Counted from the first letter of the stretch, positions 7,271 to 41,688 are shown. The stretch: DNA of 64,000 bases from Candidatus Moraniibacteriota bacterium (GCA_016699425.1 CP064975.1:590098-654097); one strand, 5' to 3'. Program-made: numbers and translations. Notes: generated from the letters alone by a model not told the origin.

Positions 7271-7286
7271 ATATACAGCTCTCAAT

Positions 7287-7547: not shown

Positions 7548-7605
7548 AGAGCTACTCCTTCGTCTTCATCTCAGCACCAAAATATAAGACTGCACCCTGA
7601 ATTTC

Positions 7606-9354: not shown

Positions 9355-9370
9355 CAGTCATCCAAGAGAA

Positions 9371-9832: not shown

Positions 9833-9922
9833 GAAATGAATATTTGTATCCTGCCACATGCACGATGCCACCCATGCTACTATACGCAACTCCCCCTGTC
9901 AACTGCCATGTTTGAGGCTCTA

Positions 9923-11776: not shown

Positions 11777-11779
11777 AGG

Positions 11780-13101: not shown

Positions 13102-13107
13102 GGCACA

Positions 13108-14223
13108 CTAGCCTAGCGGTCGATTTTGTTCGTCTTCAATGAGCACCTCTTTGAGTGTATCCATATCATCGAGGACGATCCCTGTCCCGCGAACCACAGC
13201 CGTCAGCGGATCTTCTACTCGATTCACGGGCATCCCTGTCTGGCTCGCGAGGAGCCGGTCCAGTCCGCGGATGAGACTGCCGCCACCCGAGATCGAAATG
13301 CCGCGCTGCATAATATCAGAAATGAGTTCGGGCGGTGTCTCCTCGATAAGCGTCTTGATATTGTTCACGATGATGCGAATCGAACGCGACAGTGCTTCAC
13401 GCACATGTTCATCAGTGATGACCACTTCTTTCGGTAAACCCGAGACCAGGTCCCGGCCACGGATCGAGTACTGCAGGCGTTCTTTCAGTGGAAAAGCACT
13501 CCCGATCGCGATCTTTACGTCCTCAGCCGTCCGCTCCCCGACGAGCAGATTGAACTCATCACGACAAAAACGGATGATATCCTCATTCATCTCATCACCC
13601 GCGATCCGCAGACTGCGCGAGATGACCACCCCCCCGAGCGAAATGACAGCCACTTCGGTCGTCCCACCACCGATGTCGACGACCATATTGCCAGCGGCAT
13701 CGATAACCGGAAGTCGTCCGCCGATCGCCGCTGCCATCGGTTCGTCGATAAGGAAGGCTTGTCGAGCACCCGCGTTCATCGCAGCCTCGATGACCGCGCG
13801 CTTCTCGACCTCGGTCACACCCGACGGGATACCGATCAAGACTCGCGGGCGACGCAGGAACTTGAAGCTCCCCTCAGTCACCTTGCCGATGAAGAAGCGG
13901 AGCATCTGCTGGGTGATCTCGAAATCAGACACAACGCCATCCACCAAGGGCCGCGTCGCGACGATGTGCCCCGGAGTCTTACCGACCATTTTCTTGGCCT
14001 CACGACCGATAGCGAGGATCTGCCCCGTGCGCTGATTGACCGCTACGACGGACGGCTCATTGATGACGATGCCCCGGCCTCGCACGTAGACGAGCGTGTT
14101 GGCTGTGCCGAGATCGATGCCGATATCCTGAGTAAAATTACCGAAAAACCGCTCAGTGAGACGCTTCCAGAAGGTGTTCCAGGAGAAAGGCATAACAAAA
14201 GAATGGCTAAAGGATTCCCTCAT
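13108..14223 (-). CDS. mreB: rod shape-determining protein MreB (actin homolog)
   Basis: DIGIDLGTANTLVY phosphate-1 motif and DIGGGTTEVAVIS phosphate-2. The ORF stays open upstream to 14508 (466 aa); start chosen at MRESFSHSFVMPFSW. Confidence 0.85.
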   Translation of the reverse strand: MRESFSHSFVMPFSWNTFWKRLTERFFGNFTQDIGIDLGTANTLVYVRGRGIVINEPSVVAVNQRTGQILAIGREAKKMVGKTPGHIVATRPLVDGVVSDFEITQQMLRFFIGKVTEGSFKFLRRPRVLIGIPSGVTEVEKRAVIEAAMNAGARQAFLIDEPMAAAIGGRLPVIDAAGNMVVDIGGGTTEVAVISLGGVVISRSLRIAGDEMNEDIIRFCRDEFNLLVGERTAEDVKIAIGSAFPLKERLQYSIRGRDLVSGLPKEVVITDEHVREALSRSIRIIVNNIKTLIEETPPELISDIMQRGISISGGGSLIRGLDRLLASQTGMPVNRVEDPLTAVVRGTGIVLDDMDTLKEVLIEDEQNRPLG

Positions 14224-14276
14224 TATAGCGGAAAATAGTCGCTCCTTCAAGGAAAGCTGTCCGTAACCATTCGTAG

Positions 14277-15431
14277 CTAGAGTCCGACGAGCAGCTCCAG
14301 AAAGGTCCGTCCCACGCGTCCCCAGGTGAAGTCTGAACGTCGGGCAAGAGCTCGTTCGCGGAGTTTCATCTGATACGATTTGTCGCCGAGAATGCCCCGG
14401 AAGGCCTGGAGAATCTCGTCGGGACGATAGGGATCGATGAGTACGCCGGCCTCCCCGACGACCTCCGGCAGAGAAGCCGAATGCGAAGGAATCACTGGCA
14501 CGCCACAAGCAAGTGCTTCGAGTGGAGGAAACCCGAACCCTTCATAGAAGGACGGGTAGACGAACACGCTAGCGAGATTGTAGAGGGCGGGCTTGTCTCT
14601 ATCCTCGACAAATCCAATCAGCCGGATCTTGTCCCGGACCGGTGACTGGTCGATCGCCTGAAAGAGCTCTTCGTATTTCCAGCCGGGCCGGCCTGCGAGA
14701 ACAAGTTCGTAGCGCGACATCTCCTCGCCGACCGCCTCCCGCTGAAATGCCTCGAAGGCCGACAGGAGCGCGCCGAGATTTTTCCGCGGTTCGATGGTGC
14801 CGAGATAGAGGATAAATTTGTAGGGCAATTGGTACTTCTCTTGGACCGCGAGGAGTGACACATCATTGCGATCCGCGGGTGCGAAACGCGCATCGATGCC
14901 GCTCAGGATGACATGGATCTTCGAAGCAGCAATCCCATAGCGAGTCACGAGGTCGTCCTTGGTTGATGCAGAAACTGCGATGACCGCATCCGCTCGACGA
15001 AGCAGCGATCGGAAATTGACCGCAAAGTGCCAGAGCCGCTGTCTCCACGCAAACATCTCAGGGAAAAATTCAAACGACAAATCATGCGCCGTGACGATGA
15101 GCTTTACCTCCCGCGAGAGGGCCGCGAAATTCAGATTGGGCATGAAGAACACATCCACGCCGCCGATAAGCCGATCGAGTCTCGGACGCTTCAGATACCA
15201 GAGGCACAGATTGAGGAGCTTATTCGGAATCCGAAAACGTTTGATCGTGACATGAGGGAAACGCTGCGCCCAGGAGAGGTCCGGTTCACCCCTCCCCCAC
15301 GCATTGAAAAAGAGCACGTAGGTATGCTCTGACCCGATCCGAAAGAGCTCTTGCAAGAGCCCGATTGTATATTCTTCCACGCCGGTTCGCCGCCCCGCGG
15401 CGAGCGAACGGATGTCGATGCCGATGCGCAT
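14277..15431 (-). CDS. glycosyltransferase family 1 (GT4)
   Basis: C-terminal EX7E motif ([23 protein letters not shown]). Confidence 0.8.
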
Positions 15432-15491
15432 GCGTCGTTCCGTTAATCCATCTTCACCGTCACACAGTATCCCGTTTCTCCCTAATACCGG

Positions 15492-16118
15492 TTACCTACC
15501 ACGCGGCTGCCCTCGCCAGTACCACAAGCCAAGCACCGTCCAGAACGCGACGCCGAGTCCTGCTGCCCCACCAATACCGAGCGCTATCGGCAAGGTGAAA
15601 CGTCCATCCCGCAAGAGAGCTTCGGTCGCGACGAGCGTAAACCAATTCCGATCCCCTGCCTGTTCATTCAGACCAGCGATGTACCGCTCCCCCGCCTCGG
15701 ACAACGCCCCCGCGATCCGTTCGGCTTCGGTCGGCGTCTTCGCCCGATACGTCACCTCTACCAAGTTCGAAGCGAGCACGAGGGCCGTGACTTGGCCTTT
15801 GATAAATTCGGCCTCCCGAGCCCCGGACAAGAGCGCGCGACGAGCGGTATCACGGCGACCGATCGCTGTCTCGAGGTAACGCGCTACGGTATTGGCCATC
15901 CGCTCATCGGCTTGGAGACGGTAGTATTGGTCATACTGATAGTCTGTGGCCGCCTCGGTCCCCTGTCGTGTCACGGAGAGGAGCACGGTGCCCTGGTACC
16001 ACTGGGTTTGGAGCCGATACGTGAGAAAGCCGACGAGGAGCGAAACCACGACCACCCCGAAAATGAGATTACCCCGGCGGATGAACAGTTCGAGAAAGGC
16101 GCGCAGTTCCATAGTCAT
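15492..16118 (-). CDS. Wzz-like polysaccharide chain-length determinant domain protein
   Basis: N- and C-terminal TM helices flanking a helical domain (…YQYDQYYRLQADERMANTVARYLET…), located inside the GT cluster. Confidence 0.5.
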   Translation of the reverse strand: MTMELRAFLELFIRRGNLIFGVVVVSLLVGFLTYRLQTQWYQGTVLLSVTRQGTEAATDYQYDQYYRLQADERMANTVARYLETAIGRRDTARRALLSGAREAEFIKGQVTALVLASNLVEVTYRAKTPTEAERIAGALSEAGERYIAGLNEQAGDRNWFTLVATEALLRDGRFTLPIALGIGGAAGLGVAFWTVLGLWYWRGQPRGR

Positions 16119-16121
16119 GTC

Positions 16122-17267
16122 TCATGAGTATATCGTCGGCCCCGGTCCAAGACCAGCGCCCCGCCTGGCGAGATGCCCTTGGACGAGTGCCTCCACCGAG
16201 TCCCGTATTGTAGCCTGAAAGAGCGCCTTGTCAAACCGTTCGGCCTTGGCGCGGATGTACGCCCCGTCATAGTGCTGCCCCTGAAACCGCTCGACCGCCG
16301 CCACGAGTGAATCAGCCGACTGAACATCAAAAAACTCTCCCATCGTGCCCGCTTCGAGATGCTCGACGATGTCACCACCACGGTAGGCGATCACCGGCCG
16401 GCCAGACGCAAAGGCTTCCTCCGCGACGATACCAAAGTCCTCCTCCTGCGGGAAAACGAATGCGCGGCACTCGGCATAGTACTTCGGGAGTTCACTGTCT
16501 GGTACGCGCCCGAGGAACTCAATCGTCGGACCAGCGAGTCGCTTCAGTCGCTCAAACTCTGGGCCACGGCCGATGATCTTGAGCGGCAGCTTCAGTCGAT
16601 TGAAGGCCTCAATCGCGATATCGTGCCGCTTGTAGGCGATGAGCCGCCCCACCATGAGGAAATACTCCCGCTGTTCGCTCTCCGGTGCCACTTGGAAGCG
16701 CGCGACATCGACGGGCGGATGGATGACGACCGACTCCTTGCGATAGTACTTGGCGATACGAGCGCGGACAAATTCGGAATTCGCGATGAAGGAGTCGACC
16801 CGGTCCGCCGAGGCCTTGTCCCACAGTCGGATTGGATTCATGAAAAACGGCACGAGTTGCCGGATGAAACGCGGGAAGCCAAAATCCTGCGTATATTTCT
16901 GGCAATCATCCCAGGCATAGCGCATCGGCGTATGGACATAGGAGATATGGAGTGTCTCGGGCCGCGTGATGATGCCTTTGGCATAGCTCGATGAATCCGA
17001 CAAGACGACATCATACTGAGAGAAATCAAAGCTCTCAATCGCGACCGGCATGAGCGGGGGAAAAAGTCGGTGGTGTTTGCGCGCAAACCGCGAACGCTGG
17101 AGGAAGGAGGTATAAATCCGCTTGTCGGCGAACTTACCATGCATGGCCTCGGGGTCATGAAGGAGCGTATAGATCGGCGCATACGGCCAGATCTCGGTGA
17201 ACGCCTCGAGCACACGCTCGGCGCCACCGTACTGCACCAGATAGTCATGGACGAGTGCGATTTTCAT
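16122..17267 (-). CDS. glycosyltransferase family 1 (GT4)
   Basis: MKIALVHDYLVQYGGAERV N-terminus and GT-B C-terminal domain (…FPQEEDFGIVAEEAFASGRPVIAY…). Confidence 0.8.
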   Translation of the reverse strand: MKIALVHDYLVQYGGAERVLEAFTEIWPYAPIYTLLHDPEAMHGKFADKRIYTSFLQRSRFARKHHRLFPPLMPVAIESFDFSQYDVVLSDSSSYAKGIITRPETLHISYVHTPMRYAWDDCQKYTQDFGFPRFIRQLVPFFMNPIRLWDKASADRVDSFIANSEFVRARIAKYYRKESVVIHPPVDVARFQVAPESEQREYFLMVGRLIAYKRHDIAIEAFNRLKLPLKIIGRGPEFERLKRLAGPTIEFLGRVPDSELPKYYAECRAFVFPQEEDFGIVAEEAFASGRPVIAYRGGDIVEHLEAGTMGEFFDVQSADSLVAAVERFQGQHYDGAYIRAKAERFDKALFQATIRDSVEALVQGHLARRGAGLGPGPTIYS

Positions 17268-17937: not shown

Positions 17938-18888
17938 CTACGTCGTCAAAAGCGACCAAGCCTCGCGTGAATCACGGAGTAAAAGATCCCAGGCCGTGAC
18001 CGAACACACGCCGTCGAGCGCCGCTCGGTCCTCGGTCGTGAGCGTGAGATGCTTCACGTCCTGCGCACCCATGATCGGATACATGATCGAAGCCGGATTC
18101 ACCACATGTGCGATGCCGAGTGCGTGCCCCAGCTCATGGATCAGCACCATGCGGAGGTGTTCGCGGTCGTCGAATTGATAGATGTCGATACCGGTACCCT
18201 CATACACTCCCTGGTCGAATGAGCCCTCGGTGCCATAGGTCGCAGTGAAGTCATTCACCCGCTCATTATAGCGGTCGACCACTTTCTCCCCCTCCTTGGC
18301 ATAGCGGTTCACTTCCGTCACCAGCGCATTCACTCTGTCCCGCTCCTTTTCCAGTGCCGTTTGGTCCTGTCGCAGCCGCTTCTCTTCACTTTGGATACCC
18401 TCGAGCTCATCTTGGTCCGTCCGCGCGCTCCGATTCCAAGCATCGACACGCGCATTGTACCGCCCGAGCCGAGTGTCAAAAGTGGCGGCTGATGCATCGT
18501 ACTTCTGGCGGGCCTTGGCCAGTTCGGCTGAAAACGCATCATATTTCCCCTTGATCGTCGTCTGCTGGGATTGGACTGCTGCCCATTCATGGTCGAGCGC
18601 CTGGCCATCGATCGTCCGCGCCTGCCGCTCGTCAAAGATGAGATTCACCGGAAAGAGCGCCCCGGCTTCATAGCGGAAGAGGTCCCGACCAAGCGCTTCC
18701 TCCCATGGCTGTTCGGCACTGGCAATGGCCTGTCGGAATTCATCCTCCGAGATCCCGAAGCGCGGATCAAACTGGCCCACCGAGTAGGCGAGCGCCTGTT
18801 GGCAAGGCACGCGTGTCGACTCGAACGCGTAGAGCGTCCCGATACCCGCGCCGAGGATGATGATCCAGATGATGATGCGTTTCAGCAT
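17938..18888 (-). CDS. membrane-anchored metzincin (matrixin-like) zinc metalloprotease
   Basis: HELGHALGIAH (HExxHxxGxxH) and a Met-turn (SIMYP); N-terminal TM helix and a long coiled-coil linker. Confidence 0.75.
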   Translation of the reverse strand: MLKRIIIWIIILGAGIGTLYAFESTRVPCQQALAYSVGQFDPRFGISEDEFRQAIASAEQPWEEALGRDLFRYEAGALFPVNLIFDERQARTIDGQALDHEWAAVQSQQTTIKGKYDAFSAELAKARQKYDASAATFDTRLGRYNARVDAWNRSARTDQDELEGIQSEEKRLRQDQTALEKERDRVNALVTEVNRYAKEGEKVVDRYNERVNDFTATYGTEGSFDQGVYEGTGIDIYQFDDREHLRMVLIHELGHALGIAHVVNPASIMYPIMGAQDVKHLTLTTEDRAALDGVCSVTAWDLLLRDSREAWSLLTT

Positions 18889-18995
18889 AGTCCCCTCCAT
18901 GATAGCACTCTGGGCTTTGACAAGCCGGCCAGCGGATTGCTAGTATCGACGGGTTCCCATCCCTTACATTAACAACCCAAACCCAGAGGTACCCC

Positions 18996-26062: not shown

Positions 26063-27822
26063 TTACTCGAGAGAATCACACCAGTTGTACCGGTGAAACT
26101 TGTCCTGCGGCATGCCATTTTTCCCTTTCAATACAAAGGTCTCTACATCAGCGCCAGAAAGAATGCTCCCTTCACAAAATACATTATCTTTATCTCTCGC
26201 ATAGCTATAGTAGATGAAATCACCATAGCCTTCATCAGAACTCAGCCCACGTCCCAAAACTCTGAAAGAATCATGGTCTGCACCACCTATTTTTTCCCCA
26301 TTATGATAGATGGATTCCTTATCCTTTCCATATACTCCACTACCCTCTGGTATCAACTGGAATGTAGAGACATCAGCCCCGATCTTTCTTGCTGGATGAT
26401 CAAAGTAGTAGACCGAATTTTTATCTTTGCTGTAACGAGATTTTTGAATTACCGTAAATGACACTGGATCAGCCCCGTCTATCACCTCATTTTCGTAGTA
26501 AACCTTACTACTGTCTTTCGAGTAGGGATATTCGAGCGGAGTAAAACTTTGAGCAGGGTCCCGCGTAAGAAGGTATTCGCGTAAATAGACATTTTCTTTA
26601 TCGCGAGCATACCCATTGTTCAACACTCGAAATGTAGGAGCATCCGCGTATGCTGGAGACTCGGAGAAAGAGTTCGCACGCACACGAACAAGATATGGAG
26701 GTTCATGACCACCAGGAGGAGATTGGTAGTAAATTGCTTCTTGATAAAGGTAGTAATTTTCCCCCAGGCTCTTAGCGCTTGTTGGCAGCTTCCCGCGCTT
26801 AAGGAAAGCAAGGTCCTGTTTCGGGAAAACCTGACCATCTTTGTAGGCTCTATTCTTGTCTTCTCCAAAACTACTGAAGAGTAATTGGACATCCTCGACT
26901 ATATGGAAGGTTTCTGGATCAGCCCCCTCTATTCGCTTGTGAGTGTGGTATACACTGTTCTTATCTTTCGCATACATGTTTGAATGTGGACCGTCGTCGT
27001 TGGCTCCTAAGATCTCAAGCGTAGCTGGGTCAGAACCCTCAATCAGGTGCGTCCCATAGTAAGTGTTCGTCCTATCCCTTGCCCACGCGCCTCTTATGAC
27101 TTCGAAAGTGGTCGGATCTGCGTCTAACACCTGCCTCATTTCATGTGCATCTGAATCAGAAAACCAAGCCTGCAGCAGCACCTTCTTGTCATCGACAAGA
27201 TAGGTCATCACAGGACTGCTCCCCTGGAGAATCCGAAAGCTACTCGCGTCAATATCGGTTAGTCTTTCTGCTTTGTAGAAAGCAAAGTTCTTGTCTTTAG
27301 CATAGAAAACAAAAGGTAAATCAGTTACCCAAAAAGTCTCAGGATCAGCCCCGTCAATCTCTTCGCCGCTAAAGTAAGCATTGTTTTTATCAGCTGCATA
27401 CCCATTTCCCAATATTCGGAATGTTGCAACATCTACCCCCTGAATCTGATACAACTTCCTCGTACTCCCGTCCTTTACATAGCCGTTAACATAAACAGCT
27501 CTATTATCGTGTGCGTACTCATTATTGTAGATTTGGAATGAATTCACGTCAGCATCAGCTATCACGTAAGAATCTAACCAGTAGACAGCCTCTTCATCTT
27601 TGGAAAAGTCTTCGGACAATTCTACTTTCCTATTAATATCATCCCAAGTTTCAACAAGGGATGCACGAGTTGGTGTTGAAACCTCCACTAAACTCGTGCT
27701 TCCAACCTGCTCTACTGCAGGAGATGTTTCTTTCTTTACGCCGCGAGAATACACCATACTTGCCGTGATGACAATCACAAGCGTAAGGAGCGCAACAATG
27801 ATAATTGATCGATAATTCATGT
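26063..27822 (-). CDS. DKNYY-repeat membrane-anchored protein
   Basis: N-terminal TM helix, then at least 10 repeats of (Y/F)xKDKNxVYxxGxxIxGADPxTFxxL. AT-rich relative to flanking genes. Confidence 0.75.
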
Positions 27823-27845: not shown

Positions 27846-27907
27846 GCAGAGGAAAAAAGAAAAAGCGCCCAGGATCCATTCGGACCCCAGGCACTCAAGA
27901 CCTCGTT
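27846..27907. repeat. 62-bp conserved intergenic element, copy 1
   Basis: aagaaaaagcgcccaggatccattcggaccccaggcactcaagacctcgtttgttttgaaa; near-identical copy at 39508-39569. Confidence 0.8.
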
Positions 27908-27940
27908 TGTTTTGAAATCAAGTCCAGACTCCCTCAATAG

Positions 27941-29131
27941 ACCGTGATGGGACTACTCACCGTGCAATTGTTGGCTTCATTTGACTCTGTGACCGCACTT
28001 TGATAATCAGCGCAGCCCTTGAAGTAGTACGTGCCACGGGCACCAGATCTTCATGCCGCCATCGTACTGCTCGCGTTCTTCACAACCGACGCAGAGTTTG
28101 GAAGCCTCGGTCCCATCATCGGTAATGTACGTCCAGGTACCGCCCGTGCCCGGACCCATGAACCAGTACGAGCTCCGGATTGCTGCTGGTGAGGGAGCGG
28201 TGCCGACGTTTTTCACGTACATCGCTGGATAGAACTTGCTCCCCGCCTTGATCGACGCTGACCCACCCGCTGGACCAACCGCTCTCACGATGAAGTCGGG
28301 TTGGGGTGGTGGTTTGGGCGCCAACGTCACCGTCAGGCTGGCTGAGTTGTTGGTCTCATCTGTTTCCGGTTGTGTTCCCTGGTAGTCGGTGAAAAAAGAG
28401 AGGGTGCAGGTTCCGACCACATTCGGCAATTGAACCGGGGTAAGAGTCTCTTCCCAAGCACTCGCACCAGCCGTGAGGCTGCTGGCCATGGTGCCATCGT
28501 CAGTGAGCAGTATGTTCGATCCCCCATTGCAGGAAACCGTGTAGGCACTGCGGATGTCAGCTGTGGCATTGACCGTGCCTTGATTGGTGATGGTGGCGCC
28601 GAGACGGACGAAGTCGCCAGCGTAGGTAGGGGCTTGGAGGAGGGTGAAGCCGCTCGGGGTGAGGTCGACATCGGGGACGTTGACTGTCCCTTCGACGACT
28701 TCAATCACTGCTTCGGTACTGCAGTTGTTGGACTCGTGCTTTTCGTCGTGCTCGCCGCCGTTGTTGTGATCGTCCTGGGGATGATCGATACAGGCGACAA
28801 TATTGTAAATGCCGGGTTCCGTGATCCACTCCCGGATGACCGTATTCTTGGTCTCGGTATGCGTATCGCCTGGCTTCAAGCTGTCGCACTGGGTCGTCGT
28901 GCTATCGATCCTGCGCCGCGCACCGTCACCACTAGAAGAATCCTTCTTGTAGCCCTTGGAGAGGTAGAAGTGGCCGGTAATGGTCTGCGTGGTATCGTCT
29001 GGATTGCAGGGGCCGTCACCGATATTCTTGGTTTGGGCTTTGGTATCGAAGGATTCATCCAGGCCGAACGTGTTGACTCTGGTACCCCAGGGGGTTTCGA
29101 GCCAGGTCTTGGTGGTAACGAAGTCGGGTGG
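27941..29131 (-). pseudogene. C-terminal half of an IS-disrupted secreted M23-peptidase/CARDB gene (two CARDB-like domains)
   Basis: With the IS removed, the reading frame is continuous from the M23 ORF into this segment (…APPAPEPPD|FVTTKTWLETPWG…LKPGDTHTE…). An extra +1 frame break near 28030-28045 separates the final CARDB motif (…GTYYFKGCADYQSAVTESNEANNCTVSSPITVY*). Confidence 0.7.
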
Positions 29132-29231
29132 GATACCGTTACCTTTTCAGTTGATGGAAAGTGTTGTTCTTGTTAGACTAGAGCCTCAAACCGGCTGTAA
29201 AGTTGACTTTAAGCCTTAAATTTCATTCAGC

Positions 29232-29975
29232 ATGTCAAAAAAATGGTCACGTCACTGTCCCCGCTGCAGCAGTCGTGAGACGGTGAAGAATGGCTCCCAA
29301 GGCTACAGCCATCACTACCTGTGTCGTGCTTGTGAACATTCTTTTTCTCGTTACTTCGGGCATGATCCGAGACTGCTGTGGATCGAGCATATTGATGGGG
29401 TACCGTTTCGTAAATTAGGAGATGAATATGGTCTCTCGGGAAAACAAGCCTTCGTGAGAGTTACAAGAGAATTAGCACAACTTCCTTCCAATGACGCTCT
29501 GACGCAAACCCTCTGTGACCCGAGACGCTTCTCGGGCATCCTTGTCATGGATGGGAAGTATGTGGCGGTCAAAGGCTTTGCGAGAAAGATTCCTTTTCTC
29601 TACGGCATTGATTACTTGACCCACGATATTCCCTTCGGGGCTTTGTATACAGCGGAAGATGAGGTGTCCTTCTCACGTTTCTTCCATCAAGTGAAGCAAC
29701 TTGGCTATGATCTTCAGATCGTGGTCGCCGATGACCGCTCTGGCCTGAAAAAGGCTCTCCTGAAGGTTTTTCCGTCGGCTCGGCTGCAGCTCTGCCACAA
29801 CCACTACCTGGAGAATATCCGGGTGGCTTTACGGGTGCGGAGTGAAGAGCGATACCGGCCCTTCTTTTACGCTCTCAAGGAGAGCGTGTTTGGAGAACGA
29901 GAGGATGTGACGAACGCCATTCGATCTTTGCCGCGAGCATCAAGAGAGAGAAACGTCTGCTCAAAAACATCGTAA
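29232..29975 (+). CDS. IS transposase ORF A (InsA-like zinc finger plus most of the DDE domain)
   Basis: CPRCSSRETVKNGSQGYSHHYLCRACEHSF is an IS1 InsA-type zinc ribbon. Candidate catalytic D residues in LVMDGKY and IVVADDRSG. Ends …CSKTS* immediately after a CAAAAAC run. Confidence 0.75.
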   Translation: MSKKWSRHCPRCSSRETVKNGSQGYSHHYLCRACEHSFSRYFGHDPRLLWIEHIDGVPFRKLGDEYGLSGKQAFVRVTRELAQLPSNDALTQTLCDPRRFSGILVMDGKYVAVKGFARKIPFLYGIDYLTHDIPFGALYTAEDEVSFSRFFHQVKQLGYDLQIVVADDRSGLKKALLKVFPSARLQLCHNHYLENIRVALRVRSEERYRPFFYALKESVFGEREDVTNAIRSLPRASRERNVCSKTS

Positions 29976-30319
29976 GTGAGATAGCGTACCGGCAGGAGGA
30001 ACTCTTCAATTACTTGCTGCTGCCAGGCTGTCCCAACAACACCAATCTCATTGAACTCTACAATTCCCATCTCAATGGGAGGCTGAAGACGATCAAGGGT
30101 TTTCAGAGTTTTGCTTCGGCTCAGTGTTGGTTGAATGCGTGGATGATACGGAGGAGAACCAAGCCTTTTACAGATTGTGAAGCTAAATTTAAATATTTGA
30201 ACGGTTACCCTTCACTCTCTTTGAGTATCAAAAAACAGGCTCGCTGGCCTGAGACATTAGTAAAACTAGGCGTAGAAGCAGTAAAACTTTTTGAAAAAAA
30301 GCGCCCTACTATCAACTGA
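29846..30319 (+). CDS. IS transposase ORF B (-1 frame; carries the N…E…N motif with the catalytic Glu)
   Basis: …EIAYRQEELFNYLLLPGCPNNTNLIELYNSHLNGRLKTIKGFQSFASAQCW is the DDE-transposase E-region. Open from 29846 and overlaps ORF A by ~130 nt. Confidence 0.7.
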   Translation, partial: RAIPALLLRSQGERVWRTRGCDERHSIFAASIKREKRLLKNIVSEIAYRQEELFNYLLLPGCPNNTNLIELYNSHLNGRLKTIKGFQSFASAQCWLNAWMIRRRTKPFTDCEAKFKYLNGYPSLSLSIKKQARWPETLVKLGVEAVKLFEKKRPTIN

Positions 30320-30343
30320 AAAGGTAACGGTAACGTCGGGTGG

Positions 30344-31375
30344 CTCGGGAGCGGGCGGGGCGATAGCTTGGATGGGATAGCCCTGACCGGTACCGTACAC
30401 TGCTTTGGAAGCATTGCCCGCGACCACGTTGCCTGTGTAGACATTGATGGTGTTGATGGTCCCGAAAGCACGAATATCAGCTGCGCTGACTGTTTCCCCG
30501 AAGAAGTTACGAATGGCACGCCAGAACCTCTGCCACAGTGGATCTTCTGGTACTTGCTCTTGCGGATCCTGACTGTCCGCAATCGAAAAGAGTTGATTCT
30601 GGGCTTCGACACAGGCGTCCATACCAGCCGGTTGAGCAAACATATTGGTGCCCAGACGGTAACGAGTATCTGCGCCTTCACAAGAACTGGTGGTCGGTGT
30701 CCAACAGACTGTGCCCTGACAGCGCGCTTGGACTTCGGTAGATTGGTTGTAGGCAGAGTGGGTTTGAATGAAGCGGATGGGATCCTCGAATGAATTCGTA
30801 CAGGTGTTATCCCCTTCGCACGGAGTCCTCCATTCGGTATTTGCCATCATCCCCCAACCCTTTACACCCTTAACGGTAGCGGGAGGCGTACTTCCGAAGA
30901 AGATACCGAAATGCAAGTGGATGCCGCAACACCAGTCTCCGGTTTTCCCTATGGGTCTTCCAGCATAAACATCGTTTCCTGCCGGCAGACTTTCTTTCGA
31001 GAGATGCCCGTACAACGCAGTAAATACCTTCCCATCATACATTTTGTGTCGGATGAACAAGGCACAATTTCCGGGGCCCCATGCAGCATCATCACAATGA
31101 CGCTTGTAGATCGTACCATCTGCAATGGCATAGACATTGGCGTCCAGCCTGCGCGTCATCATATCCACGCCATTATGGTAGAAGCCATCGAAATAGTGCG
31201 GGGCTTCCGATGCGCTTTCATGTGCGTCATCCCTTCCTAACCATGTACCTCCCCCGCTCTCAAACGTTGCTTTTCCAATTGGATAGAAGAATCCCGTCTC
31301 CGTCTGGTCAATAGCATATACCGCATGCGCAAACAGACACAGCACTACCAGGATGAACATCGTTACTGCTTTCAT
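30344..31375 (-). pseudogene. N-terminal half of the IS-disrupted gene: secreted M23 (LytM-type) metallopeptidase domain
   Basis: Signal peptide MKAVTMFILVVLCLFAHAVYA and M23 motifs (…GRPIGKTGDWCCGIHLHFGIF…). The 369-aa track ORF (30266-31375) ends with 26 IS-encoded residues. Confidence 0.8.
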
Positions 31376-31485
31376 GTTGCTCTCCTTTCTGAGAGACTGA
31401 TTGTAAAGGGACTGCTGGTGTAGAGATAAAAAATACTATCCTACAGAATCTACGCATCATCTGATGTGTAGATTATTGTAAGACA

Positions 31486-32136
31486 CTATCTAACAAGCCT
31501 GATCGAGGAGAGAAATTGCTTTTTTATATTCTCATCCAATTGTTTTTGTACCCACGGGAAACTTATTCGGTAATATCCGCCATTGTATTCGAACATTATC
31601 GCTTCATAACCCATTTCGCCAGGCATTGAGAGGATGTATGCCTTTGTTCCATCTATTGTTGTCTCACCAGTTACATTAATGTATGTGTGTTCGCTATCTG
31701 CAAGAAAATCCTCAAAATTCTCATACTTTTTCTCTTCTTCCCAACTACCCCCTTTCAATTCCGGATTATTTATGTCTTCCCATCGATTAATTGAAATAAC
31801 CAGGAAATAGCCTGGGATCTTCTGACCAGTTAAATCCTTTGCGTCTCCATCAAACTCCATGAACATAACCACACAACCGATATCTGTTGACTCGCTATCT
31901 ACCTTGAATGCTGTCGGATATTTAACGCTGAGCTTTAGTGTATCATTTCGATAGGTTTTCCAGTCGGAAGTATCGATCGGGTTCGCTGGTTCAGTCTGTG
32001 TCACTGGCTCGACGACGGGCTCAGTGGTCACAGGTGGATGAATGACTGCCTGCCGCTTTTGCATCATCCAAAAGGCGCCAGCAATGACGAGCAGGGCGAT
32101 AAGGGCGGTAGCGAGGAAGAGGGGTTTATGATTCAT
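31486..32136 (-). CDS. membrane-anchored hypothetical protein, paralog family A
   Basis: MNHKPLFLATALIALLVIAGAFWMMQ N-terminal anchor; paralog of 41008-41688 (MHQKPLFLTIILITLLAVIAGAFWCLQ). Immediately upstream of the M23 gene. Confidence 0.6.
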   Translation of the reverse strand: MNHKPLFLATALIALLVIAGAFWMMQKRQAVIHPPVTTEPVVEPVTQTEPANPIDTSDWKTYRNDTLKLSVKYPTAFKVDSESTDIGCVVMFMEFDGDAKDLTGQKIPGYFLVISINRWEDINNPELKGGSWEEEKKYENFEDFLADSEHTYINVTGETTIDGTKAYILSMPGEMGYEAIMFEYNGGYYRISFPWVQKQLDENIKKQFLSSIRLVR

Positions 32137-32283
32137 AGATTTGGAAATTGAAAGTAGCAAAAAGGGACTGAGACTGTCAAGCCCAGAATACTTGATTCCG
32201 AACGGACGGTCGAGAAGCGTGAACAGTCCCGCAAGGATTCCGACCAGGTGATCAGGAATTAGCCATTGACTCGAGGAAATTCT

Positions 32284-33624
32284 TTACGGTGTGAGGCGCT
32301 TGACGTCGCGCGGATAGAGGATGGCTTCCTTGATAGAGCCGAGGCCGAGGAGCTTCTGGACGATACGTTCGCTGCCGAGCCCCCAACCACCGTGCGGGGG
32401 TGTCCCGTACTTGAAGATGTCGAGATAATCCTTGAAGGCTTCCGGATCGAGTCCTCGTTGTTCAAGTGTTTCTCTCAGTTGGGCATAGTCATGAATCCGT
32501 TCGGCACCTGACGCGATCTCCACACCGCGGAAAACGAGGTCGAAGGTTTCACTCTGCTTCGGGTCCCCAGGACTCGGCAGGCTATAAAAAGCGCGAGCCG
32601 CCGTCGGGTAATGCGTCAGGAATACCAGATCAGAATTGTACTTCTGCTTGACGTATTCGCCGATCAGCCGTTCCCCTTCACTGTCGATATCCTCTGCCTC
32701 CAATTCCTTGCCATATTCTTTCTTCAGAATTTCAAACGCCTCGGCAAGACGCATACGCGGAATAGCCACTGGCTCGGGGACCGTCGCTCCATACTGGGCA
32801 AGTGCACCGGCACACGTCGCGCCGATATGACGGAACATGTGGTGTATGGTCTTTTCTAGCATCGCCATCACGTCTTCCATGCTGTCGATGAACCCCATCT
32901 CGGCATCAAGTCCTGTAAACTCCGTCACGTGGCGGGTGGTATAGCTGGGCTCCGCGCGGAACACGCTGCCGATCTCGAAGACACGCTCGAATGCGCTCAT
33001 CCCCGCCTGTTTGTAGAACTGCGGACTCTGGGCCAGGTACGCATCCCGATCAAAGTACTTGATCTTGAAAAAGTTCGCCCCACCTTCGGTCGCGGCCGAA
33101 AGGATCTTCGGTGTCTTGATCTCCATAAATCCCTCGCTCCGCATATAACCCTCGTAGGATTCGAGGAGCACATCATACACCTGAAATATCGCCTGCACTT
33201 TCGGATTGCGCAGGGTCGCTGTCCGATGATTCAACAATGTCTCGAGCTGAAGATGCATCTCGGGCTGTGAGACGTCAATCGGCAAGTCCTCGACTGGCTG
33301 CCCAACAATCGTAAGCGCAGTGACTTCGATTTCGATCCGATCTTCCGGCCGAACCGAAACTCCTTCTCCATCGCTCCCCTTTTTCAGCGGACGCTCCTTG
33401 ACCAGCCCCTCAACAGTCACCGCATACTCCGCGCGAACCTCTCTGGCAGCCTCGATAACCGTCGACTTCTCTGGTGTCACGACGAGCTGCACCGCGCCGC
33501 TCCGATCACGCAGGACAAAGAAGATAAGCTTGCCATGGTCTCGGCGCTCCATTATCCAACCCGAGAGTCGGACCGTCTCACCGCCATTCCCCGCCGCGTC
33601 ATGAATCAGTGTCCGTGCCAGCAT
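32284..33624 (-). CDS. aspS: class IIb aminoacyl-tRNA synthetase, archaeal-type AspRS (or AsnRS)
   Basis: 446 aa with OB anticodon-binding domain; motif 2 FRAEPSYTTRHVTEFTGLDAEM; C-terminal GGWGLGSERIVQKLLGLGSIKEAILYPRDVKRLTP. AspRS type 2 and AsnRS cannot be separated by eye. Confidence 0.6.
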   Translation of the reverse strand: MLARTLIHDAAGNGGETVRLSGWIMERRDHGKLIFFVLRDRSGAVQLVVTPEKSTVIEAAREVRAEYAVTVEGLVKERPLKKGSDGEGVSVRPEDRIEIEVTALTIVGQPVEDLPIDVSQPEMHLQLETLLNHRTATLRNPKVQAIFQVYDVLLESYEGYMRSEGFMEIKTPKILSAATEGGANFFKIKYFDRDAYLAQSPQFYKQAGMSAFERVFEIGSVFRAEPSYTTRHVTEFTGLDAEMGFIDSMEDVMAMLEKTIHHMFRHIGATCAGALAQYGATVPEPVAIPRMRLAEAFEILKKEYGKELEAEDIDSEGERLIGEYVKQKYNSDLVFLTHYPTAARAFYSLPSPGDPKQSETFDLVFRGVEIASGAERIHDYAQLRETLEQRGLDPEAFKDYLDIFKYGTPPHGGWGLGSERIVQKLLGLGSIKEAILYPRDVKRLTP

Positions 33625-37167: not shown

Positions 37168-38472
37168 CTAATCTAACCAACCCCAATTTTTCAGCTGATT
37201 TCGGCTACTCAATTCAAAAGAAACACCGATATCATCACGGTAAAACGCCTTTGGAATAATGAGGTTTTTAACCCGTGTATATGCTTCGTCCCGCGCCAGT
37301 TCTATTGTCTTCCCGGAGCCACAGACATGAGCGACACAACCACGATTCCCAGCTATGTACAACTCCCCCATATCTTTGCAAGCCGCCTCTTCGAATCCGT
37401 AATGCTGCAACCCATCTAATGAAACCTTCTCTCTGAAAAGAATTGGTAGACCATTCGATGTTTCTGCAGTATGAACGTTCACATAGTAAGGATAGGGCGG
37501 GACAGCTACCGTCACGACGATGCCATACCCAGTCTTGTATTTCAGATCATATGTCTCTCCATCTGCAATCGCTGATAGAAACTCGATCCACGGAGACTCG
37601 TGTAACTCGATTTGAAGAGCTGTCGATGGGTTACCAAAACGAGCAGTGAACTCTAGTGGCCATGCTCCGTCTTGATTGACAATACAATTAATATCCACAT
37701 CTCCGCGGAAATCAATGTCTCTGAGATAATCAGCAACTTTCGCAAGTGTAGAAGAAAACAAGTGATTCTTCTCATTTCCGTCATACCACATCAAAGTACC
37801 CATCTCCGCCGTTTTTGGCCCAATCTCACCAGACATTAAGGCCTTGTGCTCAACATTCATTTCGATCGGACCAACCCAATCCTTACCGTTGAAATAACGT
37901 GCGACGCCAACCTCCACTCCGTCTACGCGCTGTTGCAGGTTTACTGCGGTTACGCCTTGATCCCGATAGTGCTCCAGCATGCCAATAAGGTCAGACTGAT
38001 CCTGGCTCTCGCCGACGAAGCAGAGCGAACTAATGTGCCCCCCATTCACCTTTGCCACCCAGCGATTCTCCGTATGTGTCTCAAGAAATCTCACCGCGTC
38101 CAAGAGATTCGAGAAGGTATAAGCCGGAAGTACATTCATTCCCGCCATTTCAAAGATCTGCTTCCCTACCAATCTATCAGTTTCGATGCGATCACCCTCC
38201 CGACTACCGCCAACTACTCGATACCCTTCCTTACGTAGGCTTGACTGTTCTACTCCGAAACCAATATCATCAAAAATGATAAGACCTTGCTTTCCAACCC
38301 ACGTCAATTCGCCCTTCCAGTCAGTAGTCTTCTGAACAAACCCGTCTAGACCAGAGGCAACTTCCGGATCTTGGATATACATCTTTACCTCACACTGCTC
38401 ACTGATAAGTTTAAATACAAGCTCAGACGCACCGAGTTCTCGGGATATAAAAAGTACTCGCATATTTTTCAT
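37168..38472 (-). CDS. ATP-grasp enzyme, PurD (phosphoribosylamine-glycine ligase)-like
   Basis: Collinear with GARS: MRVLFISRE… (N-domain), GPKTAEMGTL (cf. GPNTGGMGAY), EFTARFGNPST (cf. EFNCRFGDPE). Confidence 0.55.
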   Translation of the reverse strand: MKNMRVLFISRELGASELVFKLISEQCEVKMYIQDPEVASGLDGFVQKTTDWKGELTWVGKQGLIIFDDIGFGVEQSSLRKEGYRVVGGSREGDRIETDRLVGKQIFEMAGMNVLPAYTFSNLLDAVRFLETHTENRWVAKVNGGHISSLCFVGESQDQSDLIGMLEHYRDQGVTAVNLQQRVDGVEVGVARYFNGKDWVGPIEMNVEHKALMSGEIGPKTAEMGTLMWYDGNEKNHLFSSTLAKVADYLRDIDFRGDVDINCIVNQDGAWPLEFTARFGNPSTALQIELHESPWIEFLSAIADGETYDLKYKTGYGIVVTVAVPPYPYYVNVHTAETSNGLPILFREKVSLDGLQHYGFEEAACKDMGELYIAGNRGCVAHVCGSGKTIELARDEAYTRVKNLIIPKAFYRDDIGVSFELSSRNQLKNWGWLD

Positions 38473-38948
38473 TAATCTCCATCGTTCTTCCCCTCACCCT
38501 CAACCATATCCGAAACCGAGTCCGATTCCAATTCTGATACTAAGCCTGATTCACTCTCCTCGTCGACAGAAATCTGGCTACACTGCTCATTCTCCGGAAC
38601 ATTATTTTCACCACAGAACTCCTCTCTACAAGTGGCTACTTCTGAGCAAAGAATCTCCGGGCACGCACCTTCATTCGGACTACACAAAGGAACCTCTGCT
38701 GCCGAGACTGTTCTTATCTTATAGTAGTCAACTTCGCCCTCTTCACAATCTTCCTCACAAACGCGAACAAAACACGCCTCAATATCTGGATCACACACAA
38801 CTTCGCTCACTAGTAAATAATTCCTATCAATGTAAACCCTCTTCACGACAAGTCCGAAGGAAACCATAAAAAAAAGGAGAAAAGCAAGAATAATAGAAAA
38901 CTGTATCTTGCCCCCCCTTACATCCTGGCTCTGCATAGATTCAATCAA
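38472..38948 (-). CDS. Cys-rich acidic membrane-anchored hypothetical protein
   Basis: One TM helix, then 14 Cys in CxxxC/CxEE spacing and an acidic tail; ATGA overlap with the ATP-grasp gene. Confidence 0.45.
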   Translation of the reverse strand: MIESMQSQDVRGGKIQFSIILAFLLFFMVSFGLVVKRVYIDRNYLLVSEVVCDPDIEACFVRVCEEDCEEGEVDYYKIRTVSAAEVPLCSPNEGACPEILCSEVATCREEFCGENNVPENEQCSQISVDEESESGLVSELESDSVSDMVEGEGKNDGD

Positions 38949-39507
38949 ACTTTACTCTGCTTATATTCTACCAGATTATTCCTAAACCACTATAGAAAGT
39001 GCCGAATGTTTAGAATATTCTCACTATGGACACAACTAAAATAGAATCTGCTTGTTGTTAGTACTGCTCGTTGATATTTACCCCGAACGATACGAGAAGT
39101 GGGGATCTATCCTGAAATATCAATAGAAAGAAACACTCAAAGAAGAAAAAGGATTCGTCTCGGAGATGGAGTAATGTCACAACACCTGAAAGCCCCCACT
39201 GACTTATACCTGGGGTTAGATTCCCTTCGGACTTGGCTTACCTGTGCACGACCTAGTCACCGCTGTCCAGCCGAGATCGGCTGCACCAGCGGCAGTGAGG
39301 CTGGCAGCCCGGTCAAAAACGCCGCCAGAACGAAATACCCACCAAATAATAGAAAGACAATGGAAGAAAACACTACTGCCCGGTGAGACCCTTCAGTACG
39401 CATAAATTTTTTGTTTCGTGAGTTCAGTATAGTCCTCTCCATCCAAAAGGCGCAAGCAATCTCGCGACACTTAAGTGTGCTTGAGACTTTCCAGGTGTTT
39501 ATCTATT

Positions 39508-39569
39508 GCAAAAGAAAAAGCGCCCAGGATCCAGTCGGACCCCAGGCACTCAAGACCTCGTTTGTTTTG
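39508..39569. repeat. 62-bp conserved intergenic element, copy 2
   Basis: aagaaaaagcgcccaggatccagtcggaccccaggcactcaagacctcgtttgttttgaaa; 61/62 identical to copy 1. Confidence 0.8.
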
Positions 39570-39588
39570 AAAAAGCTCCACCGTGCCC

Positions 39589-40890
39589 TCAGTTCGTGAC
39601 CGTAATGGTCAGGCCTAAGGGTACTCCAGGGACGTTGTTGACGACTGAAAACGTCTGGATCTCCGTCCAGCTATCACCTTCATTGCTCTCAAAGGCTTCG
39701 TCCTCGGCATCGATCTTGGCTTTGAACGAAATGGTCGAGACCCCGAGTGGGACCGTGTAGTCGATGTGCTCGGTATGCGTAGCACCACTGGGGAGGTTGG
39801 TGGCCTGGATGTATTCGCGCTTGAGGAAGAACCAATCACCGAGGTCCAGACGAGCGTAGAGATCGACTTCGATTCGGTTCTTGCCGGGACGCATGTGGTC
39901 ATGGGTGTCGCCGTCCTTGGCTTTGACTTGGATCCGGGGTTGAATAACCTGACCAACTCGGACAGTTGATGTGGCCGGGTCAAGATCGGTACCCGATGCC
40001 ACGTCCCGCACCCAGAAACGGTTGACTTTCAGGTTAAAGGGGTCAGTACCGGCACCACCAAACACGCCATAGTGCTTGGTATCACTCGTTGCAACCCGAC
40101 CAGAGATCCGAGAACAGAGTCCCATAGTTGGATTGGAGAGACAGTAGGTCCTGTCCTGAGTGATATGGATGAAGTAATGTGGAAACTTAACGTCATTCGG
40201 ATCAGCGCTCTTGCACACCTTTCTCGCCCCAGTCCGACGGCCAAAGTTAAGTTCGTTGTCCCAGTTGTACTCAGAGACCTGCACGCACTTCACCCCGTTG
40301 TCTGCTCCGTCTGGTTCACCGTCTTCCTCTACTAGGGCAACATGGCCGTACTTATTGGCAGCGCGAATGATATTACCTTTCACATCTTTTTTCGCATCCC
40401 AGGCTTCCCAGACTGCGATATCTCCCTCGAATGCCCCGTTGAGACGGCTCTTTTCGAATGTGAACCTGTCTCGAGCGCCAGTGATTCCGATTTCGGATAC
40501 TCGAGCAGCATCGAACCAGTGATACCCACTCCCCCATGTCTGGCCGTAGTAGCTGTTCTTGAACTCGGGAGTTGTATTCCCCCAAGCCTCGTTCAGTTTA
40601 CTGGCCACATAAGAGGTACAGTTGCACTGGGCAAAACTCCATTTGTCGATGAAGTAACTCAGGTTATCCCACCGATATCTTGAGGTGCTGGCTATGTACT
40701 TGAAAGAATCAGCACTAGAGAGCACTCCTCCAGCCACCTGCTTTGTCTCATTTTCTCGTGTGACTTCGTCACCTTCATCTTTTGGACACTTGTCACGATA
40801 GAGGTATGTATCGTTTGTGTCTTCAGCAAAAGATGGAGATGGGGCAAACTGAAACATCAATGTACATAAGAAACACAGGAAAACTCGCAT
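39589..40890 (-). CDS. secreted CHAP-domain peptidoglycan hydrolase with C-terminal CARDB-like domain
   Basis: Start at MRVFLCF with RBS gaaggaggtgatagaATG (signal peptide). CHAP catalytic Cys (CNCTSYVASKL) and His (GHVALVEE). C-terminal …AEDEAFESNEGDSWTEIQTFSVVNN… resembles the CARDB motif. Confidence 0.75.
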   Translation of the reverse strand: MRVFLCFLCTLMFQFAPSPSFAEDTNDTYLYRDKCPKDEGDEVTRENETKQVAGGVLSSADSFKYIASTSRYRWDNLSYFIDKWSFAQCNCTSYVASKLNEAWGNTTPEFKNSYYGQTWGSGYHWFDAARVSEIGITGARDRFTFEKSRLNGAFEGDIAVWEAWDAKKDVKGNIIRAANKYGHVALVEEDGEPDGADNGVKCVQVSEYNWDNELNFGRRTGARKVCKSADPNDVKFPHYFIHITQDRTYCLSNPTMGLCSRISGRVATSDTKHYGVFGGAGTDPFNLKVNRFWVRDVASGTDLDPATSTVRVGQVIQPRIQVKAKDGDTHDHMRPGKNRIEVDLYARLDLGDWFFLKREYIQATNLPSGATHTEHIDYTVPLGVSTISFKAKIDAEDEAFESNEGDSWTEIQTFSVVNNVPGVPLGLTITVTN

Positions 40891-41007
40891 TCTATCACCT
40901 CCTTCGGTTGGAAAAGGACCACTCGCCAATGATACTGACGAGTCCTGAAACGATTATAGGTAAGTCGTTTCAAGACTAGCCACCATAAAGTATGGATCTT
41001 TGAATAG

Positions 41008-41688
41008 CTACCGAATCTCTTCCACTGAGGCGAAGACTTTCTTTAGGACTACAGATTGCGTTTCAATAAAATTCCCAATCCTGTTCTTTTCTTCACTCGA
41101 AATCTCTGATCGCAACCATTTACTATCATCGCTGTGGAAGCACATTGGAACTGTGGGGACATCTTCACCCGTTGGGATACCAAACGCAATAAAGAAGTCA
41201 GTGAACTGCAAACGTCCAATGAAGAAATCGGAAGGGGTCGACCATTCTTTCATGTCGCCTGCTTCTTTAGTAAAGTATCCGATAGCCCGCGTCCCTGGCT
41301 CACAAGCGGGCTCGAGCCCTAAGAGTGAATGAGAAGAAAAATGCACAGTTTCATGAAATGGCGTAGAGAATTTTTTTTCACCTTCAGTAATTTTCCCGTC
41401 TGACTTCGAATAAATGTATATCAAATCCTCTGCAAACTCTCTGTTTAACTTCATCCGGATACCCATCTCCGGGATGTTGTACCAGACCTCATCGGCATTC
41501 CCAGGGATAGTCTCGATGTGCTGGGGATACTTCTCTGTTTCAGCTTGGATGGGAGCCTGAGCGACTGGTTCAGACACGATTGGTTGATTCATCGCTCCCG
41601 GGCGGTTTTGGAGACACCAAAAGGCGCCAGCAATGACGGCGAGGAGAGTGATAAGGATGATCGTGAGGAAGAGGGGTTTCTGATGCAT
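41008..41688 (-). CDS. membrane-anchored hypothetical protein, paralog family A
   Basis: Paralog of 31486-32136; immediately upstream of the CHAP hydrolase gene. Confidence 0.6.
   Translation of the reverse strand: MHQKPLFLTIILITLLAVIAGAFWCLQNRPGAMNQPIVSEPVAQAPIQAETEKYPQHIETIPGNADEVWYNIPEMGIRMKLNREFAEDLIYIYSKSDGKITEGEKKFSTPFHETVHFSSHSLLGLEPACEPGTRAIGYFTKEAGDMKEWSTPSDFFIGRLQFTDFFIAFGIPTGEDVPTVPMCFHSDDSKWLRSEISSEEKNRIGNFIETQSVVLKKVFASVEEIR

Follow-up and report, generated by a model that had tools for sequence, protein, structure and literature searches.

Two loci in a stretch of 64,000 nucleotides from a Candidatus Moraniibacteriota bacterium (GCA_016699425.1, CP064975.1:590098-654097; the whole stretch analysed is called the window hereafter) raise the question of what a small membrane-anchored protein and a secreted peptidoglycan hydrolase are doing in adjoining genes, and how such a gene pair evolves. 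An original prediction, made from the DNA alone, had described each locus as a three-part module, with a membrane-anchored partner gene, a hydrolase gene encoding a CARDB-like tail and a conserved 3' element of 62 bp, and had guessed that the organism resembled members of the candidate phyla radiation (CPR). Both arrangements are present on the minus strand, and the guess about the organism is borne out: the partner protein of the first module (A1, 31486-32136) is identical to IPJ68_03140, annotated as a hypothetical protein in a metagenome-assembled genome of Candidatus Moraniibacteriota whose contig measures 1.22 Mb, and that of the second (A2) is IPJ68_03185. We propose that these loci are recombining cassettes in which a Sec-exported peptidoglycan hydrolase is coupled to a membrane-tethered partner that binds and restrains the enzyme in the manner of an immunity protein, a tentative reading to which, taken as a whole, we give somewhat less than an even chance. 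The components on which the argument rests are as follows.

31486-32136, minus strand: partner gene A1 of module 1, 216 aa, intact; signal-anchor helix, linker and extracytoplasmic domain.
31987-32136, minus strand: coding region for the A1 leader and linker, the sole part in common with A2 (41539-41688); contains DNA repeats D3 and D4.
30344-31375, minus strand: 5' part of the M23-CARDB hydrolase gene of module 1, identified by Pfam match, motifs and in silico reconstruction.
27934-29131, minus strand: 3' part of the same gene, encoding CARDB domains 2 and 3 after the remainder of domain 1; the protein ends in TESNEANNCTVSSPITVY, followed by the stop.
41008-41688, minus strand: partner gene A2 of module 2, 226 aa; A1-like leader and linker, invariant motif, variable ectodomain.
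39589-40890, minus strand: CHAP hydrolase gene of module 2, 433 aa, intact; signal peptide, variable segment, CHAP domain, conserved tail.
40042-41461, minus strand: strain-variable cassette of module 2, made up of the A2 ectodomain from residue ~77, the spacer, and CHAP protein residues 1 to ~283.

Read along the minus strand, module 1 runs from the gene for aspartyl-tRNA synthetase (AspRS, 32284-33624) through A1, the M23 hydrolase gene and a 63-nt element to a gene for a DKNYY-repeat protein, and module 2 from a ClpB-like gene through A2 and the CHAP hydrolase gene to the 63-nt element. Our comparisons show the product of the first gene to be a predicted protein of ~200-250 aa, with a near-invariant signal-anchor helix, a linker rich in Pro, Val and Glu, and a highly variable extracytoplasmic domain, and that of the second to be a predicted peptidoglycan hydrolase with its own signal peptide, an N-terminal M23 or CHAP domain and a conserved tail that is of the CARDB type or immunoglobulin-like.

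To describe how these modules differ between close relatives, we compared the window with two Moraniibacteriota genomes (GCA_049662085.1 and GCA_049645545.1) that are 97-99% identical to it over the housekeeping flanks. The module 2 cassette is replaced in two sister strains, with 98-100% identity on either side of the replaced piece. The left breakpoint lies at ~41461, within the codons for …NIPEMG in the partner; identity then drops to the level of unrelated sequence over 1.42 kb, and is 100% again from ~40041, at the DPFNL codons that open the hydrolase tail. The replacement takes in the partner ectodomain and the spacer as well as the signal peptide and CHAP domain of the hydrolase, and its breakpoints are sharp to a single base and lie in conserved motif-coding sequence. 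The two alleles have ectodomains of 22% and catalytic domains of 43% identity, whose tails are 99% identical. Module 1 exhibits the same replacement pattern in a sister strain, where tandem partner genes precede a hydrolase with a different M23 head (32% identity), and where identity with the window is 92-100% over the 3'-terminal 900 bp and the terminator. In a third strain (contig L006), the slot beside AspRS is occupied by a YPQHIE-type partner and a CHAP gene, where the window has A1 and the M23 enzyme. When the window is set against a further relative, L009, the breakpoint falls at the conserved catalytic-Cys motif, which indicates a third recombination joint. Recombinational replacement at conserved motifs is what these alignments show, and such a pattern of exchange is typical of genes in biological conflict.

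Two other sources of such differences were considered and set aside. An assembly chimera is ruled out by an independent short-read contig (L001) that equals the window at 100% over 2282 bp, spanning the left (partner) breakpoint and the whole replaced segment of module 2 before it ends inside the terminator at window position 39543; contigs L007 and L008 agree with each other. A diversity-generating retroelement is an unlikely source as well, as the differences are replacements of whole segments and not scattered substitutions. Contig ends inside or just after hydrolase genes, or in the 63-nt terminator, are found in L001, L006, L009 and L020-L023: the short-read assemblies break at these loci because the tails and terminators are repeated.

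The gene pair itself is conserved well beyond these strains. A leader-bearing partner followed by an M23 or CHAP hydrolase was found in all of the 12 loci examined, in unrelated neighborhoods; the count took in the leader proteins whose downstream gene was visible (the two loci of the window, L002, L003-L005, L006, L007, L008, L009, L010/L011, L020, L021/L022 and L024). The neighborhoods include AspRS, ClpB, UvrD (L009), ribosomal protein L15 (L020), a glycosyltransferase cluster, and an island with recombinase, transposase and TIR-NB-ARC genes (L003-L005). Adjacent, co-oriented genes conserved as a pair, as one would expect for an effector and its immunity protein, are thus seen in 12/12 contexts, and this pairing, together with the replacement of whole segments between sister strains, substantiates the earlier view of the loci as modular cassettes. 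The class of partner also matches the class of enzyme: partners of the DTSDWKTYRN type lie upstream of M23 enzymes (6/6), those of the YPQHIE…EVWYNIPE type upstream of CHAP enzymes (5/5), and a third type (P0072) upstream of a CHAP-CARDB enzyme. Searched against 1.84 billion cluster representatives, a profile built from the two leaders of the window matched only 38 proteins, almost all of them 100-280 aa long with the match at the N-terminus; they carry many ectodomains that look unrelated, and over ~35 clusters the leader and linker are far better conserved than the mature domain. From these searches, the cassette family appears to be confined to a narrow clade of Candidatus Moraniibacteriota. 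We consider the anatomy and the population genetics of the cassettes to be solid.

Several of these contexts merit description. In L002 (6973-8645), two leader-bearing partner genes with differing ectodomains (P0021 and P0016) stand in tandem before a single M23-CARDB gene, an arrangement that resembles arrays of spare immunity genes. In L020 (5547-8121), from a sister strain, a partner and M23 module directly follows ribosomal protein L15, in the usual place of secY, and the hydrolase is called as two open reading frames (ORFs), an M23 head and a CARDB part. In L003-L005 (~1-16600), from a more distant relative, an A1-type partner and an M23-CARDB gene share an island with genes for a serine recombinase, a DDE transposase and two further proteins, one with a SEC-C motif and one of the TIR-NB-ARC-TPR type; this looks like a defense or mobile-element context.

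How the two partners are related is less simple than their designation as paralogs had implied. Residues 1-50 of A1 and A2 are indeed alike (BLASTP, 50% identity, E = 5e-13), but the remainder cannot be aligned by BLASTP or by profile-profile comparison, with hhalign aligning 32 leader columns and nothing further; hence simple paralogy along the full length is ruled out at the sequence level, the leader alone being common to both. In A2, the leader is followed by the invariant motif YPQHIExIPGNxDEVWYNIPExGIRMKLNxEFAEDLxY and then by a variable ectodomain with two conserved cysteines. In the predicted models of both proteins, a low-confidence linker joins an N-terminal helix to a folded α/β domain (predicted local distance difference test scores of 82 and 78), and their best fold matches are identical, of the PsbP/Mog1/Tsi3 type; the comparison was made with the PsbP-like fold (Pfam PF18933, PsbP_2; PsbP/Mog1 fold). 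In A1, the parts are a signal-anchor helix at residues 4-29, a low-confidence linker rich in Pro, Val and Glu at 30-50, and an ectodomain modeled with this fold. The predicted N-terminal helix, linker and folded outer domain would, if the modeled topology is right, place the partner in the compartment where the enzyme acts. Judging by the models, the A1 and A2 ectodomains probably share one fold despite sequences that cannot be aligned. The nearest structural neighbors of Tsi3 are 3hlz, Mog1p and PsbP, and Tsi3 inhibits a peptidoglycan muramidase by inserting loops in its active site and occluding it (PMC3792639). A fold that is used elsewhere to bind and neutralize cell-wall enzymes may therefore hint at an immunity role for the modeled partners, as a lead and not as proof.

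Both assignments of the catalytic domains hold. In the CHAP protein, a signal peptide comes first, then a variable stretch ahead of the catalytic cysteine, then the CHAP domain and finally ~150 aa of conserved tail that starts with DPFNL; the Pfam CHAP match (PF05257) passes narrowly, at 26.9 bits against a cut-off of 26, with C89 (QCNCTSY) and H183 (GHVA) in place, and homologs carry CHAP annotation. For the enzyme of module 1, the Peptidase_M23 match (PF01551) scores 43.2 bits against a cut-off of 28.7, and both zinc motifs are found, H67xxxD (H67NGVD) and H153xH (H153LH). The 5' part of this gene encodes a Sec signal peptide (…AVYA/ID), the M23 catalytic domain, a Cys-rich middle and the start of CARDB-like domain 1. 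The CARDB-like tails attributed to both enzymes are confirmed in part. In the M23 protein (PF07705, cut-off 22.7), domains 2 and 3 score 33 and 29.2 bits, but domain 1 has no Pfam match; in the CHAP protein the match is below threshold (13.3 bits, E = 0.1), although the tail is weakly CARDB-like when compared by hhalign with the CARDB domains of the M23 protein (E = 5e-4, probability 33%), and relatives L009 and L024 have an additional or canonical CARDB domain. Similarly, the E-x-NE-x-NN motif said to end both proteins is found in the M23 protein (TESNEANN) but reads FESNEGDS in the CHAP protein.

The hydrolase of module 1 has been inactivated in the window by an insertion sequence (IS) and a frameshift, and the partner gene alongside is intact. 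The features involved are these.

29132-30334, plus strand: IS256-like element of 1203 bp; its terminal inverted repeats, of 24 nt each, have one mismatch (repeat I2).
29123-29131 and 30335-30343, no strand assigned: 9-bp target-site duplication GTCGGGTGG, as direct repeats flanking the IS.

The interruption by an IS is real, with inverted ends and a target duplication, and removing the element and one copy of GTCGGGTGG in silico gives one uninterrupted frame through three CARDB-type domains. The gene does begin at 31375 as predicted, but its stop codon is at 27936-27934 and not at 27941. The further frame break that had been suspected is also present, as one extra base at 28037-28051 relative to the intact gene of a sister strain, which reads …GGMKISARGTYYFKG… at this site; the site lies outside any homopolymer, but the extra base may still be a sequencing error. 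The 3' part (27934-29131) is 92-100% identical to the sister-strain gene. The IS, of which there is one copy in the window, belongs with the IS256 family by its mutator-type DDE transposase, terminal inverted repeats and 9-bp target duplication; the transposase matches Pfam Transposase_mut at 32.7 bits (cut-off 21) and also MULE, and its best NCBIfam match, under the cut-off of that model, is IS256_Zn_var. Two frames (29232-29975 and 30014-30319, plus strand) share the coding sequence of the transposase between them, a split for which a frameshift mutation, programmed frameshifting or a sequencing error may be responsible, and the N-terminus of the transposase has a zinc ribbon of the IS1/IS1595/IS256 "Zn variant" type.

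What might such cassettes do? The role of immunity or chaperone factor given to the partner by the original prediction is plausible, and we infer the function of the cassettes along the following lines. The conserved leader and motif on one side and the conserved tail on the other would serve as homology arms, between which cassettes would be exchanged by homologous recombination. The hydrolase would be secreted via Sec, with its tail holding the enzyme at a cell surface or directing it there, where it would cut the peptidoglycan of a host or competitor, or possibly that of the producer. The membrane-tethered partner would bind and restrain the hydrolase at the surface of the producer, much as Tsi3 and other periplasmic immunity proteins plug type VI cell-wall effectors, and conflict-driven diversifying selection would lie behind the turnover at the strain level. 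Two observations count for immunity-like behavior, namely the tandem partner genes before one hydrolase in L002 and the intact partner beside a dead hydrolase in the window.

Several results weigh against this interpretation, and the most serious concerns whether the partner tracks the enzyme. The CHAP cores of the window and L009 are 92% identical and their partner ectodomains 24%; the M23 domains of the window and L021 are 79% identical and the partners 23%; only the comparison with L003 is concordant (M23 73%, partners 63%). Cognate co-variation, which an effector and its immunity protein should exhibit, is therefore contradicted in two of the three informative allele comparisons, although the correlation at the level of classes is perfect, and no part of the system varies as much as the partner ectodomain. 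An effector-immunity model in its strict form is weakened by ectodomains that do not in every case go with the catalytic domain, and because similar catalytic cores pair with dissimilar ectodomains, models in which the partner is an anchor or regulator, or a variable surface protein, stay open. In addition, the PsbP/Mog1 fold is common among envelope proteins (LpqN, Apa, DcrB) and is not specific to immunity; the isoelectric points of the partner ectodomains and catalytic domains are all acidic, giving no charge hint of a complex; either hydrolase gene could be read from a promoter of its own, located behind an intergenic hairpin, so that its co-transcription with the partner gene is uncertain; and we know of no dedicated secretion system or target organism for the cassettes.

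The match between partner class and hydrolase class also fits a reading in which the enzymes are the bacterium's own autolysins, acting in growth, septum splitting or the building of envelope-spanning structures, with the partner as a tethered anchor or regulator that would position or activate the enzyme; the variability would arise from the exposure of both proteins, on the surface of a single-membrane cell, to phages or hosts. Such control by membrane complexes is known for PcsB, CwlO or LytM-type factors elsewhere among bacteria, and M23 and CHAP enzymes are well established as common housekeeping autolysins. The loci, moreover, lie among housekeeping genes (AspRS, ClpB, ribosomal proteins), with MreB and PBP2 close by, and an ectodomain that varies independently of the catalytic core fits surface exposure better than cognate inhibition. 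We nonetheless think this account rather unlikely, since catalytic domains of ~40% identity are swapped between strains that are 97-99% identical elsewhere, which is unusual for essential autolysins, since one copy is dead through the IS and the frameshift at no evident cost, and since the modules occupy differing genomic slots, one of them in the island with recombinase, transposase and TIR-NB-ARC genes.

The strong conservation of leader and linker relative to the mature domain over the ~35 clusters, and an ectodomain that varies more than any other part and is open to replacement by itself (window versus L021), would also suit a partner that works chiefly as a variable protein of the cell surface, for instance an adhesin for host recognition or a decoy, much like the variable lipoproteins of mycoplasmas; the hydrolase would then have an accessory role, opening the wall where contact is made, and would not be under the control of the partner. 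The homologous folds do include adhesin-like envelope proteins, for example Apa. The adjacency to hydrolases in 12/12 loci and the matching of classes argue instead for a direct functional tie, and no phase-variation switch (invertible promoter or repeat tract) was seen at either locus, so that we regard this explanation as unlikely. A phage-type lysis cassette of holin and endolysin, or a prophage remnant, would likewise place a small protein with an N-terminal transmembrane helix upstream of a lysin-type CHAP or M23 enzyme, but is highly improbable and disfavored by a partner that differs from holins in having one anchor and ~150 aa of folded outer domain, by hydrolases that carry their own Sec signal peptides, and by housekeeping flanks with no phage genes nearby.

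If the preferred reading of a hydrolase restrained by its partner is retained, the cassettes can be set beside systems already described. As in the type VI pairs Tse3-Tsi3, Tae-Tai and TplE-TplEi, the gene of a peptidoglycan-degrading enzyme stands beside that of a small extracytoplasmic protein, the partner models, judging by their best matches, probably fall in the same fold group as Tsi3 and TplEi, alleles differ between strains, and tandem partner genes occur. Unlike those pairs, the cassettes come without a type VI system and rely on an ordinary signal peptide for export, the partner gene precedes the enzyme gene, and partner and catalytic domain are not strictly co-inherited. Furthermore, type VI immunity proteins are lipoproteins or soluble periplasmic proteins, whereas the cassette partner, whose inhibitory role we infer, is tethered by a transmembrane helix. 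The hydrolases also resemble the bacteriolysins or class III bacteriocins (lysostaphin, zoocin A, enterolysin A) in being Sec-secreted, with an N-terminal M23-type domain and a C-terminal surface-targeting domain, and in bacteriolysins, too, a protective gene adjoins the enzyme gene. However, bacteriolysin immunity works through FemABX-like enzymes that alter the cross-bridges of the producer and not through a binding protein, the targeting domain is SH3b-like where the tail of the cassette M23 enzyme is CARDB, and we know of no family of swappable cassettes with conserved arms, such as that seen here, described for them.

The mode of evolution recalls polymorphic toxins, in which conserved blocks likewise flank a variable toxic domain and a neighbor gene, with recombination at the blocks and diversity at the strain level. 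The geometry is nevertheless mirrored, for in the cassettes it is the N-terminus of the enzyme that is variable and the C-terminus that is conserved; of the two conserved arms, the second is located within the partner gene, and the enzymes are Sec-exported cell-wall hydrolases. A leader that is much more conserved than the mature domain is shared with the variable surface lipoproteins of mycoplasmas, but the leader of the cassettes is a signal anchor, no phase-variation switch was seen, and the members are coupled to a hydrolase gene. By analogy, then, we would place type VI cell-wall effector-immunity pairs and Sec-secreted bacteriolysins closest in function, and cassette exchange in polymorphic toxins closest in evolution.

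The cassettes bear on the means by which ultra-small CPR bacteria breach the walls of the organisms on which they live, and on the determinants of their host range; no description of such modules was found in the CPR and Patescibacteria literature searched. They are concrete candidates, consisting of predicted secreted M23 or CHAP enzymes with surface-binding tails and a partner with an inhibitor-like predicted fold, and few other sites distinguish near-identical strains. Their base-sharp breakpoints within motifs also provide a clean natural case of domain-level cassette exchange. A bolder and rather unlikely extension is that the cassettes form a CPR-specific polymorphic weapon-and-shield system that works without a specialized secretion machine, in which the conserved partner leader and motif, the hydrolase tail and the terminator are kept as recombination arms. 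If so, strains would swap a matched or new cutting head together with a tethered protective or recognition domain, and this would set which hosts or competitors can be attacked.

The third part proposed for each module, the element at its 3' end, is less general than the gene pair. The elements and the spacer between A1 and the M23 gene are located as follows.

27855-27917, minus strand: shared 63-nt element, copy 1; intrinsic terminator with a GAAU loop and ~20 conserved nt before the stem.
39510-39572, minus strand: shared 63-nt element, copy 2; terminator as in copy 1, with a GACU loop.
31376-31485, minus strand: A1-M23 spacer; strong hairpin and U-run, then a Shine-Dalgarno-like GGAGAG.

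The repeat is real, with two copies, but it is 63 nt long and lies ~10 nt away from the 27846-27907 first given for copy 1. The copies are identical at 62 of 63 positions and differ in the loop alone (blastn, E = 5e-29); the window has two of them, and none of 100 shuffles gave a match. Each begins 17 nt past the stop codon of its hydrolase gene and is predicted to form a 15-bp stem (8 of the pairs G-C) capped by a loop of 4 nt, with the U-tract UUUUCUUUU directly after it, so that it has the G+C-rich hairpin and U-run 3' of a stop codon by which rho-independent terminators are recognized; the copies are the two best terminator-like sites in a region of 15.5 kb, and no Rfam family matched the element or the intergenic regions. 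In two sister strains the element is found at the same positions with copy-specific loops: identical copies of the copy-2 element follow the CHAP genes of L007 and L008, and the copy-1 loop is kept after the sister-strain M23 gene. It is absent 3' of the hydrolase genes in the distant relatives L003, L010 and L024, and scans of public genomes and metagenomes for the terminator hairpin gave chance-like matches only (Nocardiopsis, Gemmatimonadales, Arthrobacter), none with the full element. Its absence in distant relatives and from the public collections indicates a terminator shared at the species level and not a defining part of the module, and the claim that it belongs to the module in general is thus not sustained: it is an ordinary intrinsic terminator of this species only. 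The hydrolase coding tails next to the two elements have ~25% protein identity, and near-identical terminators beside such diverged coding tails suggest that the 3' end was recently copied or underwent gene conversion. The similarity between the window and L002 stops precisely at the end of the element.

Just 3' of terminator copy 2, at 39440-39460 on the minus strand, 20 of 21 nt equal the codons for IAGAFWM in the A1 leader (blastn-short, E = 6e-4), possibly a relic of another, third partner gene. This fragment adjoins a small ORF with a hydrophobic segment (39257-39442), lying upstream of it, and overlaps a possible promoter (TTGCGC…TATACT). Stable hairpins are found in both spacers between partner and hydrolase genes (31376-31485 and 40891-41007, minus strand), along with TACAAT and TATAAT boxes; the region 31370-31490 folds at -32.3 kcal/mol (z = -3.9). 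These hairpins could attenuate read-through, leaving the partner in excess, or could conceal separate promoters.

With regard to the surroundings, the minus strand encodes at 38472-38948 a protein of 158 aa that has a single hydrophobic segment, is rich in cysteines and ends in a very acidic tail; it is kept in the sister strains and has no Pfam match. Downstream of module 1, the segment 14277-27820 (minus strand) contains genes for several family 4 glycosyltransferases, a methyltransferase, a sugar epimerase/dehydratase and the DKNYY-repeat protein (26063-27820), and has a G+C content of 55-58% compared with 44-50% nearby. In L002 other genes follow the same terminator, encoding an ADP-forming acyl-CoA synthetase, a beta-helix protein and a family 4 glycosyltransferase, and because the genes 3' of it differ, a strain-variable surface-glycan region begins exactly at the terminator of module 1. 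Among the glycan genes of the window, an ORF at 17938-18900 (minus strand) has a matrixin-type domain (Peptidase_M10) and may encode a secreted metalloprotease.

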